Below, one piece after another: positions 1,908 to 21,562 of a DNA stretch of 22,328 nucleotides. Source of the DNA: a virus (taxonomy: Duplodnaviria; Heunggongvirae; Uroviricota; Caudoviricetes); IMG/VR virus record IMGVR_UViG_648861009_000003. The stretch is one strand, 5' to 3'. Position 1 is the stretch's first letter. Each line of letters starts with the position of its first letter. The position numbers and the translations under genes are program-made. Under the pieces are notes generated by a model. It was not told where the DNA came from. It worked only from the letters and a program-made list of their open reading frames with translations, and made no database searches.

Positions 1908-1999
1908 CTTCCATTAATCCCTGAATTGTTGGTTAATACGCTTGAGGATGAATGCGAACAATAAAAAAGGAGCCTGTAGCTCCCTGATGATTTTGCTTT

Positions 2000-4108: not shown

Positions 4109-4368
4109 TTATACCTCTGAATCAATATCAACCTGGTGGTGAGCAATGGTTTCAACCATGTACCGGATGTGTTCTGCCATGCGCTCCTGAAACTCAACAT
4201 CGTCATCAAACGCACGGGTAATGGCTTTTTTGCTGGCCCCGTGGCGTTGCAAATGATCGATGCATAGCGATTCAAACAGGTGCTGGGGCAGGCCTTTTTC
4301 CATGTCGTCTGCCAGTTCTGCCTCTTTCTCTTTCACGGGTCGATCTGCTGGTAGTGACGCGCCCAGCT
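4109..4368 (-). CDS. gam: gam, 3' portion (copy A) abutting the N-gap; 5' end corrupted by indels
   Basis: Translation ...[74 protein letters not shown] matches the lambda Gam C-terminus; the last ~40 nt before the gap carry extra bases relative to copy B. Confidence 0.75.
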
Positions 4369-4814
4369 NNNNNNNNNNNNNNNNNNNNNNNNNNNNNNNN
4401 NNNNNNNNNNNNNNNNNNNNNNNNNNNNNNNNNNNNNNNNNNNNNNNNNNNNNNNNNNNNNNNNNNNNNNNNNNNNNNNNNNNNNNNNNNNNNNNNNNNN
4501 NNNNNNNNNNNNNNNNNNNNNNNNNNNNNNNNNNNNNNNNNNNNNNNNNNNNNNNNNNNNNNNNNNNNNNNNNNNNNNNNNNNNNNNNNNNNNNNNNNNN
4601 NNNNNNNNNNNNNNNNNNNNNNNNNNNNNNNNNNNNNNNNNNNNNNNNNNNNNNNNNNNNNNNNNNNNNNNNNNNNNNNNNNNNNNNNNNNNNNNNNNNN
4701 NNNNNNNNNNNNNNNNNNNNNNNNNNNNNNNNNNNNNNNNNNNNNNNNNNNNNNNNNNNNNNNNNNNNNNNNNNNNNNNNNNNNNNNNNNNNNNNNNNNN
4801 NNNNNNNNNNNNNN
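4369..4814. other. Run of 446 N (assembly/scaffold gap)
   Basis: Contiguous N characters; both flanks are copies of the same gam sequence. Confidence 0.95.
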
Positions 4815-5111
4815 CCGTTTATACCTCTGAATCAATATCAACCTGGTGTGAAGCAATGGTTTCAACCATGTACCGGATGTGTTCTGCCATGCGCTCCTGA
4901 AACTCACATCGTCATCAACGCACGGGTAATGGCTTTTTGCTGGCCCGTGGCGTTGCAAATGATCGATGCATAGCGATTCAAACAGGTGCTGGGGCAGGCC
5001 TTTTTCCATGTCGTCTGCCAGTTCTGCCTCTTTCTCTTCACGGGCGATCTGCTGGTAGTGACGCGCCCAGCTCTGAGCCTCAAGACGATCCTGAATGTAA
5101 TAAGCGTTCAT
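4815..5111 (-). CDS. gam: gam, copy B: intact start ([34 protein letters not shown]...) but 3' part frameshifted by single-base deletions near the gap
   Basis: The N-terminal 56 aa match short-form lambda Gam; downstream the sequence is the same as 4105..4368 but with at least 6 one-base deletions. No in-frame upstream ATG for a long Gam form. Confidence 0.75.
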
Positions 5112-5186
5112 GGCTGAACTCCTGAAAATGGCTGTGAAAAAATCGCCCGCGGAATGCCAGGCTGATTCGGAAAACAGGAAAGGGGA

Positions 5187-5477
5187 TTAGTGATTCAGAC
5201 CGTTGCCGCGTCCGTCGAGAAAAACTTCCACGAGCAAGTCACGGGTATAAGTGCGCTCAATGCCGCGATGCAGATAAAGTCGTCCGCGTAAATTAGCTGA
5301 TGCAGTCCAGGTACCATCTTTGCGTTTGACCAGCATTCCTGGCATGACCGCACCGCGATTAACGGTCTGCGTTCCGTAATGTTGATGAACCATAAAAACT
5401 CCTGCCCGTAAGCTGGGCTGCTGAACATATAAAGACTTCTGCGCGTATTCAGGCGGTGGATGGCCGCCGGTTGTCAT
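5187..5477 (-). CDS. Hypothetical early-left protein (96 aa), first ORF downstream of the putative pL
   Basis: ORF on the early-left strand upstream of gam, in the kil/cIII position; no family recognised; start codon uncertain (internal Met at MVHQHYG or MPGMLVK possible). Confidence 0.3.
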   Translation of the reverse strand: MTTGGHPPPEYAQKSLYVQQPSLRAGVFMVHQHYGTQTVNRGAVMPGMLVKRKDGTWTASANLRGRLYLHRGIERTYTRDLLVEVFLDGRGNGLNH

Positions 5478-5644
5478 AACTAAGCCGCCTCGTTGAAGCG
5501 ACTAAGGTATGAAATGTTGAGTTGATTTCAGCTGGTCACACCGACGTTCACGCGTCCGTTTCATCCCTCGCACTCCCCGAAGCCTGCTGAAATTCAAGCT
5601 GCGGATCTAAGCGGTCATCGCAACGGTGAATCAGGTAGTTGCCG

Positions 5645-5750
5645 TATCGTTGTGTTGTTGCGATGAACTTATTTAAAACTATAGTTGTTTTATCGTCAAC
5701 AACAAAAGTTGTTTTATTGGTTGTTTTAGATATAACTGGTTGTATTTAGG
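5645..5750 (-). promoter_or_regulatory. Candidate oL/pL operator-promoter region
   Basis: Cluster of TGGTTGT(T)/AACAAC motifs (5652-5660, 5683-5690, 5699-5704, 5708-5714, 5719-5726, 5738-5745) resembling the inverted half-sites in the cI-cro intergenic region. Confidence 0.35.
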
Positions 5751-5837
5751 ATGGATTTATTTTGTGACTTGAATCGCATAGCGATAACTGAAGCGAGGTT
5801 ATGGTGGTTTTTTTAACGGTGTGTGTGATGAGGGGAG

Positions 5838-5867
5838 GGCAAAAGAAAACCCGGCACGGTGGCCGGG
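5838..5867 (-). terminator. Rho-independent terminator downstream of the accessory operon
   Basis: Minus-strand RNA would form the GC-rich hairpin cccggccaccgtgccggg followed by ttttctttt, 8 nt after the stop of the 310-aa gene. Confidence 0.55.
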
Positions 5868-5875
5868 TAGCATCA

Positions 5876-6808
5876 CTATTCGATTTTTTTAACCATGTAG
5901 TTACGTCGTGATGTTCCTAATCTTTCATTGTGAATCTCAGAAACGCTTACTACGAGCGATATTCGTTCACCAACTTTATATTTACTTTGAATTTCTCCTA
6001 ACATATCAATCGGATAAGAAGCCTTTATTTTTCCAAGCTCGCTTGCAATCTCCAATTTCCCGTACATGGATAAAATAGCAAGTTCGCCTGATATATGCTC
6101 ATCCGGTAGCTGAATGACCTTCGTTAAAGCTAAGCGAGCATTCAGTTTTTTTATATCTTCTGAAGAAATTGACACTTGTCTGGTACCATCACTTAAAGGT
6201 CCAATCCAAGTAAGATCAAAGTTAAGACTATATTTTTCGCACTCATTTATGATGTTTTTTAGGTTAGCTGTTGATTGCGAACCAATTTCGGCAATTTTAG
6301 CCGTGAATGTTTCTTCATCAATGGATGAGAGTAGTGCAAAAATCTCCTTAACAGCATGACTGGATACTGTTTCGATGAGCTCGCAAGAACCAGTAGAAAA
6401 AGTAACACCTAACTTCGTCGAACCTGGACGCAAGTCTGCCAATCTCATGTCTAATGATTTTTTAACATCAATCGGCACACGACTAGAATCTTTCCCAGAT
6501 CCAAGTCGGTAAACTGCTTTCTGTACAAGGGATGCGAGATTACCTGAAATTACAGATAGAATATCTAACGGAATAGACCCGAAATCGACCAAAACACCTT
6601 TTAATCTCAACTCCATGAAATCACGTAAAGGATGTTGGTTATCGATTGCACGTTGTCTCTCTCGGAGATCGCTCAGATGGGAGTCAAGTGATCTAAATAT
6701 AATGTCATCAGCAAATGATCTCCCCTTATTTTGAGCAAGCAGATCCACATCGCGTTGAATGAACGCAATTCGCTCCTTGAGGGAGTTGAATGTTTTTTCT
6801 TCGCTCAT
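5876..6808 (-). CDS. Unknown 310-aa protein, second gene of the repressor-linked accessory operon
   Basis: Long ORF with no family recognised; start overlaps the upstream NTase-like gene by 4 nt (ATGA), implying translational coupling; contains R-x4-H (RSLDSH) and R-x5-H (RAIDNQH) strings that are too common to count as evidence of HEPN. Confidence 0.75.
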   Translation of the reverse strand: MSEEKTFNSLKERIAFIQRDVDLLAQNKGRSFADDIIFRSLDSHLSDLRERQRAIDNQHPLRDFMELRLKGVLVDFGSIPLDILSVISGNLASLVQKAVYRLGSGKDSSRVPIDVKKSLDMRLADLRPGSTKLGVTFSTGSCELIETVSSHAVKEIFALLSSIDEETFTAKIAEIGSQSTANLKNIINECEKYSLNFDLTWIGPLSDGTRQVSISSEDIKKLNARLALTKVIQLPDEHISGELAILSMYGKLEIASELGKIKASYPIDMLGEIQSKYKVGERISLVVSVSEIHNERLGTSRRNYMVKKIE

Positions 6809-7278
6809 AACATTACCCTCACGAGGCCTTTAGGATTCTCCTTCCGATCAAAACCAAACCACCCTCTCCAGTAACTTCGCCTTTCACTATAATCGATTTC
6901 TGGATGATTTTCAGGCAGCAAAAGAACGTCAATGCTGTAGTTTTCTTTAATAAAATCTCTATTTAACAATGAGCTGACCAATGGCATCAGCGTGTTTGGC
7001 AAAGAGTTTAGGGCCAAATAATCGACGACCACGAGTATATCTATGTCATCAGGTTCAGGTTTCTCTGTAGTGAATGAACCATCGATCCACACTTCAGAGA
7101 AACATAGACACTGCTGATTAACAAGTTTAAATTGCTCAATAAGCTGTATAAAATTACAGTATAGCATACTTCTTCTAACGGATTTTGGGAAGGTGTCGAC
7201 ACAAAGAGACTTGATGCCATCACTATCCATATCATGAAATCCTGCTGTAAGAAGAGGTGGGAAGCTAGGCTTTTCCAT
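6805..7278 (-). CDS. Minimal pol-beta-type nucleotidyltransferase-like protein (157 aa)
   Basis: Motif VWIDGSFTTEKPEPDDIDILVVVD fits the GS-x9-DxD signature of minimal nucleotidyltransferases, with a further acidic residue in YSIDVLLLPE; lies 81 nt downstream of the repressor gene on the same strand. Confidence 0.7.
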   Translation of the reverse strand: MEKPSFPPLLTAGFHDMDSDGIKSLCVDTFPKSVRRSMLYCNFIQLIEQFKLVNQQCLCFSEVWIDGSFTTEKPEPDDIDILVVVDYLALNSLPNTLMPLVSSLLNRDFIKENYSIDVLLLPENHPEIDYSERRSYWRGWFGFDRKENPKGLVRVML

Positions 7279-7359
7279 CCTAAGTCCTTGTTTATGCCAT
7301 ATAGTGTTCTATTTAATATTCTTGAAAAGAGTGTGCCTTAAAAAGCTACAGGCTAATTA

Positions 7360-8049
7360 TTAACCATGCTTCCTGTACGTCTGCGGCATGCTCCCAATAA
7401 CCTTACCGAAGATGAACACCCGGTTCATCTCGTCTTTCTCGATCGGGTCCCACGGTGAGTAGCTTTTGTTATCAGAGATGACCAGCAGCTTATCCTTCAT
7501 CATTTGCAGGCGCTTTACATGGGCTGTGTCGTCGTACAGAAACGCATAGATACCATCACCGTCGAAAGATTTAACTGTGATATCAACGAACAGCAGATCA
7601 CCTGGTTCGATCGTTCCTGACATGCTGTCACCACGCACGTTAATGATGCGGATATTTTCCGCCTTCCTACCATCGAACATGTGACGAGCATCGTCAAACG
7701 AGTACTCAACCGAGCGTAGAACTTCTACAAACTCACGGTTGATGACTCCCGGCCCAGCACTGACTTCTATATCAAGAACGTCAATCTTGAAGTATTTGGA
7801 ATGGCTGACAGTTGATTGTATTGGTTGCACTGTACTGTCTGACATATTTCCAACGCCAGAAGATAACCATTCTGCGCGCACACCCAAAGCGTTCGCGATC
7901 TCCACGATTTTAGTTGTTTGATTAGCTTTCCCTGTTTCGATTTTCTGAATAGCAGCCTGGCTAACCCCGACCAAATCCCCAAGCGCCTTTTGTGTAAGGC
8001 CTCGCGCTAATCTGGCTTCTTTAAGTCTTTCTGAGAGTGTTGTTTTCAT
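7360..8049 (-). CDS. cI: CI-like prophage repressor (HTH_XRE N-terminal domain plus S24 LexA-like peptidase domain)
   Basis: Start taken at MKTTLSERLKEARLARGLTQKALGDLVGVSQAAIQKIETGK (HTH); C-terminal ...INVRGDSMSGTIEPGDLLFVD...HVKRL carries the S24 Ser/Lys autocleavage motifs; divergent from the cro-like gene. Confidence 0.9.
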   Translation of the reverse strand: MKTTLSERLKEARLARGLTQKALGDLVGVSQAAIQKIETGKANQTTKIVEIANALGVRAEWLSSGVGNMSDSTVQPIQSTVSHSKYFKIDVLDIEVSAGPGVINREFVEVLRSVEYSFDDARHMFDGRKAENIRIINVRGDSMSGTIEPGDLLFVDITVKSFDGDGIYAFLYDDTAHVKRLQMMKDKLLVISDNKSYSPWDPIEKDEMNRVFIFGKVIGSMPQTYRKHG

Positions 8050-8054
8050 AGTCC

Positions 8055-8153
8055 AAATGTACAACCAAGGTTTTATTCCATCAAACGAAAATGGTTGTTG
8101 ACTAAAAACAACCATAGTTTTAATCTTGATTCAAATTAACCACGGAGGTTGTT
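8055..8153. promoter_or_regulatory. Candidate oR/pR/pRM region between cI and cro
   Basis: Divergent intergenic region containing the inverted repeat ATGGTTGTT-N7-AACAACCAT (8091..8115) and a further ACAACCA half-site (8061..8067). Confidence 0.5.
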
Positions 8154-8384
8154 ATGAACCCAGCTATCAAAACAGCGATCAATATCGTTGGTTCACAAAA
8201 GAAACTGGGCGCTGCTTGCGAAGTTTCACAGCAGGCCGTCTATAAGTGGCTTCACAACAAAGCAAAGGTATCCCCTGAACATGTCGGCAGCATTGTTACG
8301 GCTACTGGTGGAGTAGTGAAGGCATACCAGATTCGCCCGGATCTTCCGAAGTTGTTTCCACACACCGAAAAGAACGCAGCTTAA
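8154..8384 (+). CDS. cro: Cro-like HTH protein (YdaS family)
   Basis: 76 aa, divergent from the repressor; AINIVGSQKKLGAACEVSQQAVYKWL is an HTH resembling Rac YdaS-type Cro proteins. Confidence 0.8.
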   Translation: MNPAIKTAINIVGSQKKLGAACEVSQQAVYKWLHNKAKVSPEHVGSIVTATGGVVKAYQIRPDLPKLFPHTEKNAA

Positions 8385-8453
8385 ATTTCCATTTCACGCT
8401 CTTTAACAATAAGCAATCAACTTAACAGTCAATTCAAACTAAAGGAGTCAATT

Positions 8454-8993
8454 ATGCAACCACTTCCATACCAACAGACTAGCGGATTTAGCCCGACTGC
8501 GGTGATAAATCGTTCTCAAACAAAACAGGTGCCAGGCCACGAAAAAATCCGTGATGCCGTCCGCGCCTGGTCGGCTGTAGATAATCAGGATGTCGTTGCC
8601 ACACTCATTGTGAATGAGTATCGGGAGCAGGGCGGCGGCACCATCGATTTCCCTGATGATGTCAGCCGTGCACGCCAGAAGCTGTTCCGCTTCCTCGATA
8701 ACAAATTCGATTCTGAAAAATACCGAAATAACGTGCGTGAACTGACCCCGGCAATTCTGGCGGTACTACCGCTGGAATATCGCGGTTACCTGGTTGAGCA
8801 GGATAGCTTCATGGCTAGGTTGGCTGAAATGGAAAAGGAACTCAGTGAGGCAAAACAGGCTGTCATTCTCAACGCACCACGCCACCAGAAACTGAAGGAA
8901 ATTAGTGAAGGTATTGTATCGATGTTTCGTGTGGACCCAGATCTGGCTGGTCCATTGATGGCGATGGTTACTACCATGCTGGGGGCGATATGA
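8454..8993 (+). CDS. YdaT-like protein in the cII position
   Basis: 179 aa; segments EYREQGGGTIDFPDD and LTPAILAVLPLEYRGYL resemble the Rac YdaT family as I recall it; located between cro and O. Confidence 0.65.
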   Translation: MQPLPYQQTSGFSPTAVINRSQTKQVPGHEKIRDAVRAWSAVDNQDVVATLIVNEYREQGGGTIDFPDDVSRARQKLFRFLDNKFDSEKYRNNVRELTPAILAVLPLEYRGYLVEQDSFMARLAEMEKELSEAKQAVILNAPRHQKLKEISEGIVSMFRVDPDLAGPLMAMVTTMLGAI

Positions 8994-9079
8994 CAGGTTC
9001 AGAAATGGCGAAAGCCGGTCTGCTGGAACAGAACCGACTTTCAGGTGCAAATCGTAACACACTCATTGCGGGAGGAATT

Positions 9080-10009
9080 ATGGCAAACACTGCTGAGATA
9101 TTCAATTTTCCAGTGCCGGATGCGGCACAAAAGGAGCCGCGCGTGGCAGATCTCGATGATGGTTATACGCGCATTGCAAATGAGTTGCTGGAAGCTGTGA
9201 TGCTGGCCGGATTAACACAGCACCAGCTTCTGGTCTTCCTGGCTGTCATGCGCAAAACATATGGCTTTAATAAAAAACTGGATTGGGTGAGCAACGAGCA
9301 ACTTTCCGAATTGACCGGGATATTGCCGCACAAGTGTTCTGCTGCAAAAAGCGTTCTGGTAAAGCGTGGGATTCTTATTCAGAGCGGGCGGAATATCGGC
9401 ATTAATAATGTGGTCAGTGAATGGTCAACATTACCCGAATCAGGTAAGAAAAATAAAGTTTACCTGAAAGAGGTAAATTTACCTGAATCAGGTAAGAAAA
9501 GTTTACCCAAATCAGGTAAAGGCGTTTACCCGAATCAGGTAAACACAAAAGACAAACTAACAAAAGACAATATAAAACCTTTTTCGTCCGAGAATTCTGG
9601 CGAATCCTCTGACCAGCCAGAAAACGATCTTCCTGTGGTGAAACCGGATGCTGCAATTCAGAGCGGCAGCAAGTGGGGGACAGCAGAAGACCTGACCGCC
9701 GCAGAGTGGATGTTTGACATGGTGAAGACTATCGCACCATCAGCCAGAAAACCGAATTTTGCTGGGTGGGCTAACGATATCCGCCTGATGCGTGAACGTG
9801 ACGGACGTAACCACCGCGACATGTGCGTGCTGTTCCGCTGGGCCTGCCAGGACAACTTCTGGTCCGGTAACGTGCTGAGTCCGGCCAAACTCCGCGACAA
9901 GTGGACCCAGCTCGAAATCAACCGGAACAAGCAACAGGCTGGCGTGACAGTCGGCAAACCAAAACTCGACCTGACAAACACTGACTGGATTTACGGGGTG
10001 GATCTATGA
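9080..10009 (+). CDS. O: Replication initiator O (chimeric: divergent N-terminal iteron-binding domain, lambda-like C-terminal domain)
   Basis: Start taken at MANTAEIFNF (GGAGG SD) by analogy to lambda O MTNTAKILNF; the C-terminal ~150 aa (SENSGESSDQPENDL...WTQLEINRNKQQAGV...DWIYGVDL) match lambda O; iterons lie inside the gene. Confidence 0.9.
   Translation: MANTAEIFNFPVPDAAQKEPRVADLDDGYTRIANELLEAVMLAGLTQHQLLVFLAVMRKTYGFNKKLDWVSNEQLSELTGILPHKCSAAKSVLVKRGILIQSGRNIGINNVVSEWSTLPESGKKNKVYLKEVNLPESGKKSLPKSGKGVYPNQVNTKDKLTKDNIKPFSSENSGESSDQPENDLPVVKPDAAIQSGSKWGTAEDLTAAEWMFDMVKTIAPSARKPNFAGWANDIRLMRERDGRNHRDMCVLFRWACQDNFWSGNVLSPAKLRDKWTQLEINRNKQQAGVTVGKPKLDLTNTDWIYGVDL
9431..9585. repeat. Replication origin: five 17-bp iterons plus an A-rich region inside O
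   Basis: ttacccgaatcaggtaa (9431), ttacctgaaagaggtaa (9459), ttacctgaatcaggtaa (9479), ttacccaaatcaggtaa (9503), ttacccgaatcaggtaa (9526), followed by acacaaaagacaaactaacaaaagacaatataaaacc. Confidence 0.8.
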
Positions 10010-11254: not shown

Positions 11255-12756
11255 TTAAATTGCATCTGCAAACTCTGGGGTTTTTCGCTCAGGTATAATT
11301 GATGAGTTGCTGTTGTCACTTTTTTTATTTTCATGATTACGAATAGCCAATGACTCATTAAAGTCTTTTGCGACTGCTGTCTCAATAAATTCAATTTCTG
11401 AATCAGAGTGTTTTTTAACAGCTTCTTTGATCTCATCCAGAGTAACATAGAAAAACTCTTTTCTACGATTTACAAGATTGACTCTCTTTTTATCGAAGAC
11501 ATCATGTAGTTTTTTTCTAATGATGGAGCGTCCTCCGAATAAATCATGGCATGTACATCAAAAATAAAAGGAACAGATGCATCACCGAGCTCATTTACAC
11601 GGTCTTGCGGATCAAGACGTCGTGTCATGCCTATTTTATAAACATTCTCCCCAAAAGAACCTATGTTCGAAATAATATAAACATGACCTTGTTTGGTTTG
11701 TTGTGCCATGGATAATGCTCTTTGATGCTTTGATTCAGCCTGCGACAAACTCTGTTCTAGTTCGGCAATGCGATTTTCGAGGCGCTGCTTCATGTCACCA
11801 GTAACTTTTTCCATTTCCTTTCTTGCAGCTTCAATTGCTTTTTTATAACGGCGCTCTTCTGCCTCTGCGTCTTGCATGGCCTTTTCTATTTCTCGTTGTG
11901 CACGCTCCTCCTCTCTCATTTGTGCCCTTATTTCTGCCTGTTCTTCTTTTTCTTTCTGTTTTTGCTCACGATATTCATGGGTAAGCCACAATTCCTCAAG
12001 TTTTTTATTGAGGTATTTAGTGTTTATATATATGTGATTTTGCTCGTTTAGTTTATTTATGGCCTCAAATGCCTTTGTGATGCGTTCTTCCATTTTAGTG
12101 ATGTTTTTCCACGTGCAATTGCTAATTGCAGCATCACATTCATTATTAAATGCTCTAGTAGTTAGCCTGATATTTCTGTCTGTCATTTTTTTACCCTCTG
12201 CTCGAGAGCCTTCAACAGTCCATTGGGTTGTACAATATACTGCGCCAGAGTGGGTTTTATCCCGCAGCATTAATTTCTGTTCATCCCTGATGGATTTTAT
12301 TTTGTTTTTAAATTGCTCTGAATCTTCAAAATTAAAATGAGGTTCGTAAAATCCTAGTTCGGCTAGCTCAACATCTTCTGAATAAATAGAAATTTGCCTT
12401 ACTAGTTTATCATATATTTCTTTCTTCTCTTTATAAGTTCTTCTTAGCTCTTGGATTTGTTTATTGATACCATCCATTTTTTCAATGGTGTTTGTTAGTT
12501 CATTATTGGCATTTTCTTTTACTTTTAGGGATTCTTCTTTTATTATGGAGCATTCTTGCTCTGTTTTCTCAATAAGCTTCTTACATTCTTCTTCTACATT
12601 AAAATAATCTGCAAAGCGAGATTTGTATTCTTCATTTTTTTGATTGCTATCACTTAATTCTAATTGTATTTTTTTGATGCGTTTGATTGCAGCTATATAA
12701 AGAACAAGAACAACCAATAAAAATATGATTGCAAGTAATAGAGGAGTTTGAGTCAT
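11255..12756 (-). CDS. DUF4041/T5orf172 (GIY-YIG-like)-family protein with N-terminal TM helix and long coiled-coil; reading frame broken at a T7 homopolymer (11510..11516)
   Basis: The 428-aa ORF (11470..12756) contains GHVYIISNIGSFGENVYKIGMTRRLDPQDRVNELGDASVPFIFDVHAMIYSEDAPSL; the family-typical C-terminus LHDVFDKKRVNLVNRRKEFFYVTLDEIKEAVKKH... continues in the -1 frame to a stop at 11255. N-terminus LLLAIIFLLVVLVLYIAAI is hydrophobic; the gene is strongly AT-rich. Confidence 0.75.
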
Positions 12757-13246: not shown

Positions 13247-13568
13247 TTGTAACTGTTGTAGCAGCTATGGATGTGATCATCATGGTGTCCATTTACTGGG
13301 GTTGACGACATGATTTATCCGGCGCTATATTCTGTGCGTTGCCGCAAAATCGGCACACGGGATTGGCGTCCCGGGATACTACTCAACGCATACCGCGTTA
13401 AGCGGTTTTTTTGTGCGCTAAGCACGGCTATGCCCAAATTATGGTGGGCTGTGTGAGGGCTTCTTCGGAAGCGCCGGGTTTGAGTAGCCGGTTACGCCAA
13501 CCTTACACAGTTCACCACCAGTCGATTGGCGTCGTTGGTGGTGATGGTTAACCTGATGAGGTGATACT

Positions 13569-14177
13569 ATGACTACTCAATTAGCATTCCACAAAACGAC
13601 GTTTACCCCGATTTGCCACAATAACAGAATTTGGCTTACTGCCACTGAAGTTGGTTTAGCACTGGAATATGCGGACGATAAAGCAGTTCAGCGCATTTAC
13701 TCTCGGCACTCAGATGAATTCACAGATATGATGACAAGGGTGGTCAAAGTGACCACCCCTCGTGGAATGCAGGAGTCTCGAGTATTTAGCCTTCGCGGAG
13801 CCCATTTGATCGCCATGTTTGCTCGTACTCCTGTGGCCAAAGAATTCCGCCGCTGGGTTCTGGATATTCTCGATCGAGAAGTTCAACAATCCCCAATCAC
13901 AAAACAATTCACTGATAACGAACTTTGCACACTCGCCTGGTTATGGCGAGCAAGTGATACGATGTTAACCGCCTGCCAGAACGTTACGCCCCTTCTTCAG
14001 GTCGCAGAGCATCGCGAAGCAGGTAGATTCACTTCAATCGAACAAGAATATCCTCGGATACTCAACAGGGCGCGAGAAATCCTTGCCAGAGAAACGGCGC
14101 ATGTAAAATTCCAACCGTGGCAGGATGATAAGTGGAGTCGTGTGTTACCATATTTCCGTCAGAATCTGTTGCAATAA
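13569..14177 (+). CDS. Bro-N / P22 AR N-terminal domain protein (Roi/antirepressor-like)
   Basis: 202 aa; N-terminal IWLTATEVGLALEYADDKAVQRIYSRH...SRVFSLRGAHLIAMFARTPVAKEFRRWVLDIL fits the Bro-N/AntA-type domain pattern. Confidence 0.75.
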   Translation: MTTQLAFHKTTFTPICHNNRIWLTATEVGLALEYADDKAVQRIYSRHSDEFTDMMTRVVKVTTPRGMQESRVFSLRGAHLIAMFARTPVAKEFRRWVLDILDREVQQSPITKQFTDNELCTLAWLWRASDTMLTACQNVTPLLQVAEHREAGRFTSIEQEYPRILNRAREILARETAHVKFQPWQDDKWSRVLPYFRQNLLQ

Positions 14178-16878: not shown

Positions 16879-16963
16879 AGTCAGAGATAACAATCAACTA
16901 ATACTGTTTTGTTGATTTTTGCTTGTAATTGGCGTTCTGGTCTGAGTTTTGTGGAGTAAGTTG

Positions 16964-17347
16964 ATGCGTGATATTCAGATGGTTCTTGAGCGTTGGGGAG
17001 CGTGGGCGGCTAATAATCATGAAGATGTGACCTGGTCGTCCATTGCCGCCGGTTTTAAGGGATTAATTCCTTCAAAAGTAAAATCTCGCCCGCAATGTTG
17101 TGACGATGACGCGATGATCATTTGCGGGTGCATGGCCCGTCTGAAAAAGAACAACAGCGATTTGCACGATTTATTAGTAGATTATTATGTAGTCGGTATG
17201 ACATTCATGTCACTGGCAGGTAAGCATTGCTGCTCTGATGGTTATATCGGGAAAAGGTTACAAAAGGCTGAGGGCATAATTGAAGGGATGTTAATGGCAT
17301 TAGATATCCGGTTAGAGATGGATATCGTTGTTAATAACTCTAATTAA
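16964..17347 (+). CDS. quuD: Late-gene antiterminator Q (QuuD/phage 82 type)
   Basis: [60 protein letters not shown]... matches DLP12 QuuD; GGAG SD upstream of the ATG at 16964. Confidence 0.9.
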
Positions 17348-17369
17348 TATGCCAATTGTTTACTAAAAA

Positions 17370-17525
17370 TTATTAAAAATGGGGCGTTGAGACGCCCCCA
17401 AAAATAAAGGGTAATATATAACAGAAGGTTTATATAGTTAGAAGCAAGGTTGTGCTTCTAAAGGAAGTGGCTTGAGGGAGCCACTTATATGTTGGGGAGG
17501 CAACGCCTCCCGCAACATATCTTTT
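17370..17525. promoter_or_regulatory. Cluster of four GC-rich hairpins between Q and the nmpC 3' end (candidate pR'/qut/tR' and/or nmpC terminators)
   Basis: ggggcgttgagacgcccc; agaagcaaggttgtgcttct; gtggcttgagggagccac; gggaggcaacgcctccc. Confidence 0.4.
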
Positions 17526-21328: not shown

Positions 21329-21562
21329 TCAATCTGGTCTGACCTGCTTTCTGAGCAATTCAGTAATGTCACTCTTTTCTTTGTTTGCTTCAGGCGAAAC
21401 TCTTTTTTCTGAGCACAGTCTTCGGCGGCAGGCTTCAATGACCCAGGCTGAGAAATTCCCGGACCCTTTTTGATCAAGAGCAATGTTAATTTGTTCAATC
21501 ATTTGGTTAGGAAAGCGGATGTTGCGGGTTGTTGTTCTGCGGGTTCTGTTCTTCGTTGACAT
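21329..21562 (-). CDS. YlcI/YnfO-like small protein with ribbon-helix-helix-like region
   Basis: 77 aa; basic N-terminus then IRFPNQMIEQINIALDQKGSGNFSAWVIEACRRRL, resembling Arc/CopG-type RHH; positioned before cos/nu1. Confidence 0.55.
   Translation of the reverse strand: MSTKNRTRRTTTRNIRFPNQMIEQINIALDQKGSGNFSAWVIEACRRRLCSEKRVSPEANKEKSDITELLRKQVRPD

Follow-up and report, generated by a model that had tools for sequence, protein, structure and literature searches.

The stretch of DNA analysed here (the window: 22,328 nucleotides of IMG/VR record IMGVR_UViG_648861009_000003) belongs to a lambda-like E. coli prophage of a common type and extends from int to the lysis genes only. On the minus strand, reading from the repressor, two genes in the rexAB position are followed by a terminator, a control region, a leader, one small gene, and then gam, bet, exo and the genes up to int. 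The phage also carries a Q antiterminator, as had been noted in the original prediction. The main features of this layout are as follows.

8115..7360, minus strand: cI-type repressor with HTH and S24 peptidase domains.
7278..6805 and 6808..5876, minus strand: two genes in the rexAB position.
5868..5849, minus strand: intrinsic terminator between the rexAB-position genes and the early-left control region.
5671..5735, minus strand: oL operators and pL, with repeats common to oR/pR at 8091-8126.
5717..5701 and 5693..5677, minus strand: oL operator repeats, which recur at oR.
5699..5694 and 5676..5671, minus strand: -35 (TTGACG) and -10 (TTAAAT) boxes of pL.
5394..5664, minus strand: early-left leader of about 271 nt, transcribed from a putative start; no gene is annotated under it.
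5187..5393, minus strand: kil, encoding a KilR-type FtsZ inhibitor of 68 aa (phrog_294), upstream of gam.
5145..5162, minus strand: weak terminator-like hairpin and U-run in the kil/gam spacer (z = -1.35), the U-run being disrupted in the relative Perceval.
From ATG 5111, minus strand: gam, then bet, exo and the remaining lambda-like left arm to int.
1967..1985, minus strand: intrinsic terminator with an 8-bp stem, UUUUUUAUUGUU, ahead of a TraR-like gene, xis and int (z = -2.3).
16949-17347: Q antiterminator (phrog_79).

The early-left promoter and operators had been correctly placed at about 5650 to 5750, since promoter boxes and operator repeats are found at 5671-5735 on the minus strand, and a 19-nt operator copy at 5673-5691 is 95% complementary with 8105-8123 at pR. 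The pL/oL stretch differs by immunity type, and the DNA downstream of about 5663 is near-identical in heteroimmune relatives. That homology with these relatives begins at about 5663 fits a putative transcript start near 5664.

The far end of the leader is set by a small gene. A 96-aa ORF in this region, earlier called questionable, turned out to contain kil: its residues 20-96 match the Kil family phrog_294 with an E value of 1.4e-37 in a PHROG search, and no Pfam domain was found in it. The start of kil is the ATG at 5393, which is Met29 of the 96-aa ORF and lies behind an AGGAG Shine-Dalgarno sequence. RefSeq protein WP_000233582, named 'phage encoded cell division inhibitor protein', is exactly this 68-aa product, and its genome has a leader 100% identical to the window over 5394-5665, with the prophage adjoining tRNA-Arg and intD, at the argU/DLP12 attachment site. 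Inhibition of FtsZ and cell division by Kil is here predicted from family annotation only. Common variants within kil comprise 17 synonymous and 3 non-synonymous changes (76-79 unique gap-free copies), and this ratio also supplies the variant analysis with a positive control. Relatives do not preserve the reading frame upstream of 5393. For example, in Perceval the frame reads through into kil as 139 aa, and in the phage PhiR30_1, which has an extra T upstream of kil, and in the alleles L166 and L241 it is out of frame with kil. Because the real start of kil is at 5393, the untranslated leader is not the roughly 160 nt (5478..5640) of the original prediction but about 271 nt (5664-5394).

This leader is widespread. 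Of 5426 complete E. coli genomes, 2209 have it at 80% coverage or more, with identities mostly of 95-99%, and it is also present in 16 sequenced phages with at least two immunity types. Perceval, which carries it, is an active, plaque-forming phage (PMC9928086), and the records of the PhiR phages name E. coli C or K-12 MG1655 as host. Therefore, the arrangement belongs to working phages and not to decayed prophages only. Scoring a site as polymorphic when its minor allele occurred in at least two unique copies, we obtained the following values.

Whole leader: 8.5% of sites polymorphic.
Third positions of kil codons: 23.5%.
First and second positions of kil codons: 2.2%.
5′ hairpin loop: 15.6%, the highest value within the leader.
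5565-5624: 6.7%.
Part of the kil leader, 5394-5504: 5.4%.

The leader thus changes at about one third of the rate seen at kil third codon positions; set against the whole kil coding sequence (9.3%) its 8.5% is similar, and it is less variable only with respect to silent sites. The constraint on the 5′ part of the leader is unexplained by a pure relic.

Comparison with other lambdoid phages shows that the leader is a mosaic, with a 5′ part derived from a leader of the lambda nutL-N type and a 3′ part that is a kil leader. The elements of the two parts are listed here in the direction of transcription.

5615..5666, minus strand: predicted 5′ hairpin with a 10-bp stem (UCAUCGCAAC / GUUGCGAUGA) and a C-rich 32-nt loop (fold z = -2.4).
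5612..5572, minus strand: second 5′ hairpin, overlapping the lambda-homologous block.
5535..5603, minus strand: block homologous by MAFFT alignment to lambda sequence immediately 3′ of nutL boxB in the pL leader (boxC region).
5502..5564, minus strand: ORF1, MKRTRERRCDQLKSTQHFIP, 20 codons from ATG 5564 to TAG 5502, arginine-rich, with GGAG 8 nt upstream.
5474..5512, minus strand: conserved 16-pair hairpin masking the GAGG and AUG of uORF2 (fold z = -5.5).
5394..5477, minus strand: uORF2, with the start MT(T/I/N)GGHPP(P/T); its first nine codons are conserved, its length and tail are not.
5452..5468, minus strand: second hairpin of the kil leader, GGCGG-CCAUCCA-CCGCC, inside uORF2 and nearly invariant in 9 sequences.

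Collinearity with the pL leaders of lambda and phi80 extends over the first 150 nt, with boxA and boxB degraded and no N gene following. The first 30 nt resemble the pL transcript starts of phi80, HK225, KO-TP1 and HK639, with 20 of 30 positions identical to phi80. Further in, 5603-5535 and the lambda sequence that follows boxB run collinearly at about 65-70% identity, the GU-rich boxC region included, while lambda boxA and boxB align by MAFFT with non-matching leader sequence that forms no hairpin. A search with the pattern AGGCTTYGGGGNGTGNGA returned, among phage-like IMG/VR matches, only lambda-type loci (with boxB and N) and loci of the window type; no intermediates between the two leaders occurred among these matches. 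A scan of species-representative genomes for such intermediates likewise gave none: all 22 matches were lambda-type, nearly all identical to lambda, and are most likely laboratory lambda DNA contamination. No lambda-type locus carrying the kil leader was found.

Both 5′ hairpins accept only pairing-compatible changes (C-to-U, or A-to-G giving G-U), with no double compensatory change seen; the stem at 5615..5666 is invariant or changed to G-U only, and in an L173-type variant its 5′ arm has been replaced. A long-range pairing of 5593-5581 with 5535-5524 was rejected, as one pair is broken without compensation in the allele L182.

The 3′ part of the leader (5514-5394) has homologues upstream of kil in phi80, HK225 and the Klebsiella phage KO-TP1, all of which carry nutL, a gene in the N position (annotated as N in phi80 only) and tL1. 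It is also found in HK639, where putL is annotated, and in the Enterobacter phage ENT1, which we group with HK639 solely because an ORF upstream in ENT1 resembles an HK639 gene. The hairpin at 5512..5474 is supported across this set by compensatory change. When nine sequences representing six phage types are aligned, 97.9% of cells in the helix are paired and 7 pairs are changed on both sides; the covariation score and the percentage paired were reached by 0 of 500 shuffles, the number of both-side changes by 1 of 500, and controls slid along the alignment paired at 28-52%. The stems of HK639 and KO-TP1 at this position differ completely in sequence. The hairpin, which lies directly 5′ of the MT.GGHPP uORF and includes its AUG, is maintained by compensatory changes. 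In the window uORF2 runs in frame into kil, which produces the apparent 96-aa ORF, whereas it is 20-21 aa long in phi80, HK225 and HK639 and stops after 10 codons in L182. The hairpin inside uORF2 is too invariant for a covariation test; its counterpart in HK639 is annotated as a terminator, but the window copy has no U-run behind it.

Since the hairpin module co-occurs elsewhere with N or put, it cannot be the antiterminator. The hairpin at 5512..5474 most likely provides translational or translation-coupled polarity control for the toxic kil gene, and the hairpin and uORF upstream of kil would constitute a conserved regulatory element of N-type, put-type and N-less phages alike. Our literature search found no published name or description for this module.

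The boundary between the two parts of the leader is informative. In phi80, HK225, KO-TP1, HK639 and ENT1, a GC hairpin and T-run end precisely at the point where homology with the window sets in (TTTCATACC). At this tL1 position the window carries unrelated sequence with no hairpin, and the tL1 hairpin is missing up to the T-run. With the window, phi80, HK225 and KO-TP1 share the hairpin, the uORF (MTTGGHPPP), the second hairpin and a KilR-type kil downstream, but in those phages the module follows nutL, the N-position gene and tL1A, whereas the window has neither the terminator hairpin nor an N gene. Similarly, the tL1-type terminators of HK639 are overridden by put, whereas the window lacks such terminators.

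Searches for an antitermination system of a known kind were negative. No credible N-type protein was found by tblastn of the window with lambda N, phi80 N, HK022 Nun, HK225 gp40 and a P22 gp24 sequence as queries; the sole match below E = 0.1, of phi80 N to the inside of bet, was spurious. When the other ORFs of the early and nin regions were scanned with PHROG, Q, NinB, RusA, Ant-like and DksA/TraR-like proteins were recognised and no member of an N family, Pfam gave none either, and no N gene is present among the 65 genes of the hand-annotated 50-kb relative Perceval.

At the RNA level, the leader (5394-5664) has no boxA match within 3 mismatches, and the sequence aligned with lambda boxB, ACCGCTTAGATCCGC, forms no hairpin, so that a lambda-type nutL, with boxA and a boxB hairpin, is not found in the pL leader. 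Rfam at permissive thresholds over 4800-9500 returned only a chance miRNA match. We also built a covariance model from HK022 putL, HK022 putR and HK639 putL, three sequences only, which tests membership of the put family and not put-like function. The model gave 67-98 bits against its own training sequences and nothing above -0.6 bits against the leader; its best match in the window and close relatives (9.6 bits, E 0.83) lay in an unrelated place, at 17274-17372. By this model, the leader does not contain the two-stem RNA with the core CGAACGGC(G/C)CG...GUCGG...GGCG.GG..AGGA.GA by which put was defined for this test, and its folding as a whole is no better than that of shuffled sequences (z = -0.05 and -0.69).

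Nor did the pL leader and the pR transcript yield a robust common element in the window or in Perceval. As many as 6 of 300 shuffles equal the best local match, which most alleles have in weaker form and Perceval lacks, and there is accordingly no left/right pair of sites as in nut and put systems. Two motifs common to the left leader and the cro-cII spacer were considered as a nutL/nutR pair and rejected, as 6 of 300 shuffles matched as well, a T at 5598 in most alleles weakens the match, and Perceval, with the same leader, lacks the motifs.

A boxA sequence is present in the right operon.

8397-8409, plus strand: exact consensus boxA, CGCTCTTTAACAA, 13 nt after the cro stop codon.

This is the sole zero-mismatch boxA in the window. 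Its surroundings do not fold (-3.7 kcal/mol, z = +0.7) and form no boxB hairpin, and the heteroimmune phages Perceval and PhiR30_1, with the same left leader, lack this boxA. It may recruit NusB and NusE alone or be no more than a relic, and it has no direct bearing on the left leader. What was found, then, is a boxA at the nutR position with neither boxB nor N to accompany it and a 96-aa ORF that is Kil, which together with the negative tblastn, PHROG and Perceval results supports the original prediction of an early-left leader that lacks a recognisable N.

The closest comparisons are with lambda and with the put phages. The leader occupies the same position behind pL/oL as the lambda nutL-N region, and the window keeps the perfect boxA after cro, but its left leader has no boxA or boxB, its right operon has no boxB and an N gene is absent. 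HK022 and HK639 are likewise lambdoid phages without N in which a structured RNA starts the pL transcript, and HK639 also has the kil leader; the window differs in having no match to the put model and no second copy in the right operon.

We favour the reading, with a probability of roughly 45%, that the locus is a natural N-less and tL1-less variant of the lambdoid early-left design, in which the left operon would be N-independent. The main basis for this is that the antiterminator and the first terminator are absent together, which suggests that N and the terminator were lost together. The leader would be what remains of an N-type leader after boxA and boxB had degraded and the N gene had gone, with this 5′ remnant joined directly to the kil leader. 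Because tL1 is missing, RNA polymerase from pL could pass unhindered into kil, gam, bet and exo; it would probably stop at the intrinsic terminator at 1985..1967, the presumed end of the operon. The hairpin at 5512..5474, by hiding the ribosome-binding site and AUG of uORF2, would then exert translational or polarity control over kil. A precedent exists in the N-independent (nin-type) derivatives of lambda, in which deletion of a terminator makes the antiterminator dispensable; those are laboratory deletions in the right operon, whereas the loss proposed here would be natural, would lie in the left operon and would include N itself.

The original prediction had offered three possibilities for early antitermination: a put-like cis-acting RNA as in HK022, no antitermination, or an N encoded elsewhere. 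Absence fits best, in that N or put and tL1 precede the kil leader in other phages and both are missing here, while the first possibility gains no support from the negative put model and the lack of a second copy in the right operon, and the third gains none, for the window and the complete relatives, from tblastn, PHROG and the Perceval gene list.

We hold the N-independent reading tentatively. Several observations weigh against it, among them the constraint on the 5′ part of the leader noted above. With the terminator at 1985..1967 in place, xis and int would be expressed from pL only if it were read through, and an untranslated leader of 271 nt with two stretches in which C exceeds G should be exposed to Rho. 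Moreover, the perfect boxA at the nutR position points to continued action of Nus factors on the right operon of this immunity type.

If the left operon is N-independent, its delayed-early control would be simpler than that of lambda, and timing would have to come from elsewhere; if it is not, the leader would hide a new antitermination device, and under either reading it offers a clean and cheap test system. Textbook lambdoid regulation relies on N or, rarely, put, and one of the commonest E. coli prophage types has neither. We found no description of antitermination in this phage group in the literature. The novelty is modest, since lambdoid phages without N are already known, namely HK022, HK639 and phage LLS (LLS: PMC12315714).

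A different account, which we consider rather unlikely, holds that the leader is a Rho-dependent attenuator combined with a translational relay. Rho acting on C-rich RNA would silence kil in lysogens, and translation of ORF1, uORF2 or both would open the hairpin at 5512..5474 and couple ribosomes to polymerase, allowing kil, gam, bet and exo to be expressed after induction. C exceeds G at 5668-5610 and at 5548-5480, the ORF1 stop codon falls in the 5′ arm of the covarying hairpin with the Shine-Dalgarno sequence and AUG of uORF2 in its 3′ arm, and six phage types preserve the uORF2 start together with its HPPP motif. There is also a parallel in the Rac prophage, in which Rho and NusG silence kilR (PMC4150792, PMC5793797). 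In Rac as in the window, a gene of this Kil family follows the early-left promoter of an immunity region of YdaS/YdaT type. In Rac the toxic kilR is kept off by transcription termination (PMC4150792, PMC5793797), the mapped terminator being inside racR. The relay is weakened, however, by the ORF1 frame, which is not conserved outside this group and whose stop codon is polymorphic, and the second hairpin by itself can explain the nucleotide invariance of the uORF2 start.

More doubtful is the proposal that the first 150 nt of the leader form a new cis-acting processive antiterminator RNA, unrelated to put by sequence and serving the left operon only. This segment (the hairpins at 5666..5615 and 5612..5572 and a G-rich stretch to 5515) is confined to this phage group, is more constrained than silent sites, and opens the transcript, as does putL, which in HK022 is located at its very start (PMC9378689). 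In addition, both hairpins tolerate pairing-compatible changes alone, the downstream terminator at 1985..1967 would need read-through, and the leader core motif GAAACGGACGCG faintly echoes the put core CGAACGGCGCG. Against this, the put model gives the leader less than zero bits, its overall folding does not exceed that of shuffled sequence, the hairpins show no double compensatory change and one has lost its 5′ arm to replacement in L173, the right operon lacks a second copy, and the absence of tL1 removes the most obvious need for such a device. That the segment might act as a protein-independent put analogue, carrying pL transcription across the terminator before xis and int, is a proposal we doubt just as strongly; if true, it would place a put analogue in a prophage family of about 40% of complete E. 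coli genomes.

An N-type antiterminator that is too divergent to recognise or that is encoded outside the window is very improbable: the short N proteins change quickly in evolution, phi80 N having nothing in common with lambda N, and the window is limited to the int-lysis genes, but all ORFs from pL to int and from pR to ren belong to assigned families also found in N-carrying phages, the 50-kb relative Perceval offers no candidate, and the boxA is not accompanied by a boxB-type hairpin.

Comparably far-fetched is the idea that ORF1 (MKRTRERR...), an arginine-rich ORF overlooked in the original prediction, encodes a minimal N-like peptide that binds a leader hairpin and promotes antitermination. 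Its core RTRERR does resemble the lambda N residues RRRERR, the GGAG stands 8 nt upstream, synonymous changes make up four of the six common variants, and its start codon is either ATG or GTG. The peptide of 20 residues would nevertheless lack a part for binding NusA or polymerase, and no boxB-like hairpin is common to the left leader and the right operon. Nor has it a homologous longer protein: none with the ORF1 N-terminus was found among 5.8 billion proteins. ORF1 was also rejected as a remnant of full-length N, the only longer matches being prophage deletion fusions. In all, about 5 synonymous and about 6 non-synonymous variants were counted, the latter including R5C, R7L and K13E. The DNA of ORF1 aligns with the non-coding lambda N-leader and by eye also resembles the phi80 N-leader. 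The start codon is GTG in 47 of 52 unique gap-free copies, and the stop is TAG in 23 unique copies and CAG in 29, so that the product would be a 20-aa peptide in the one case and a long extension at the N-terminus of Kil in the other; because both its start and its stop codon are polymorphic, ORF1, although it may be translated, is probably fortuitous.

Upstream of kil, a KilR-type cell-division inhibitor gene, the early-left leader carries a module that was also found at five of the compared loci (L006, L007, L008, L133 and L134):

5452-5512, minus strand: hairpin, uORF and second hairpin ahead of kil

The hairpin comprises 16 pairs and displays covariation, the second hairpin is nearly invariant, and the uORF is conserved as MTTGGHPPP, including its polyproline run. 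This module is common to lambdoid phages of the N-type, the put-type (HK022/HK639-type antiterminator RNA) and the N-less kind, whose hosts are Escherichia, Klebsiella and Enterobacter. We found no account in the literature of a hairpin/uORF/hairpin arrangement upstream of kil.

Several elements of the rightward operon were also noted:

8397-8409, plus strand: boxA, exact 13-nt consensus CGCTCTTTAACAA, 13 nt past the cro stop codon
9431-9547, plus strand: several direct and inverted repeats TTACC(C/T)GAATCAGGTAA, spaced 19-48 bp
13302-13331: strong promoter-like site ahead of the Ant-type gene
13392-13413, plus strand: intrinsic terminator-like site ahead of the Ant-type gene
13569-14177, plus strand: Ant-type anti-repressor gene in the nin region

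No other site in the window matches the boxA consensus without a mismatch; this copy has no accompanying boxB hairpin and is missing from the heteroimmune relatives Perceval and PhiR30_1, which share the left leader. The repeats lie within the O-like replication gene and are, as expected, the origin iterons. The Ant-type gene and the two sites ahead of it form an insert that transcription of the late antiterminator gene Q would have to cross without N.

Matches to defence-related genes were identified at two positions, all on the minus strand:

5876-6808, minus strand: PDC-M63 B match (E 4e-42)
6805-7278, minus strand: PDC-M63 A match, DUF6932 nucleotidyltransferase-like (E 7e-43)
11470-12756, minus strand: PD-Lambda-1 match, 428 aa (E 8e-169)

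The first two form a pair (5876-7278) in the rexAB position, flanked by cI and pL, and by sequence similarity this pair matches the candidate defence system PDC-M63. The PD-Lambda-1-like gene is situated between ren and the nin region on the opposite strand and splits the rightward operon, with P/ren on one side and Q on the other; in a close relative, RefSeq annotates the gene in this position as a DUF4041 protein.

A run of Ns at about 4337-4813 marks an assembly gap with a partial gam copy on either side (4109-5111), and the copy starting at 5111 is frameshifted relative to that ending at 4109. This arrangement has the appearance of an artefact of scaffolding or sequencing, and reading frames near the gap are therefore untrustworthy. 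A scan of species-representative genome contigs for lambda-type leaders returned 22 matches (L135-L156), all identical or near-identical to phage lambda, from unrelated bacteria including Shewanella, Pseudomonas, Desulfovibrio and Capnocytophaga. Because several of these contigs measure about 48.4-48.5 kb, the matches point to contamination of the assemblies by laboratory lambda DNA.

Separately, a 77-aa ORF (21329-21562, minus) has an N-terminus rich in arginine and threonine (MSTKNRTRRTTTRNIRF...). It follows the lysis genes, is encoded on the other strand and belongs to no early operon.
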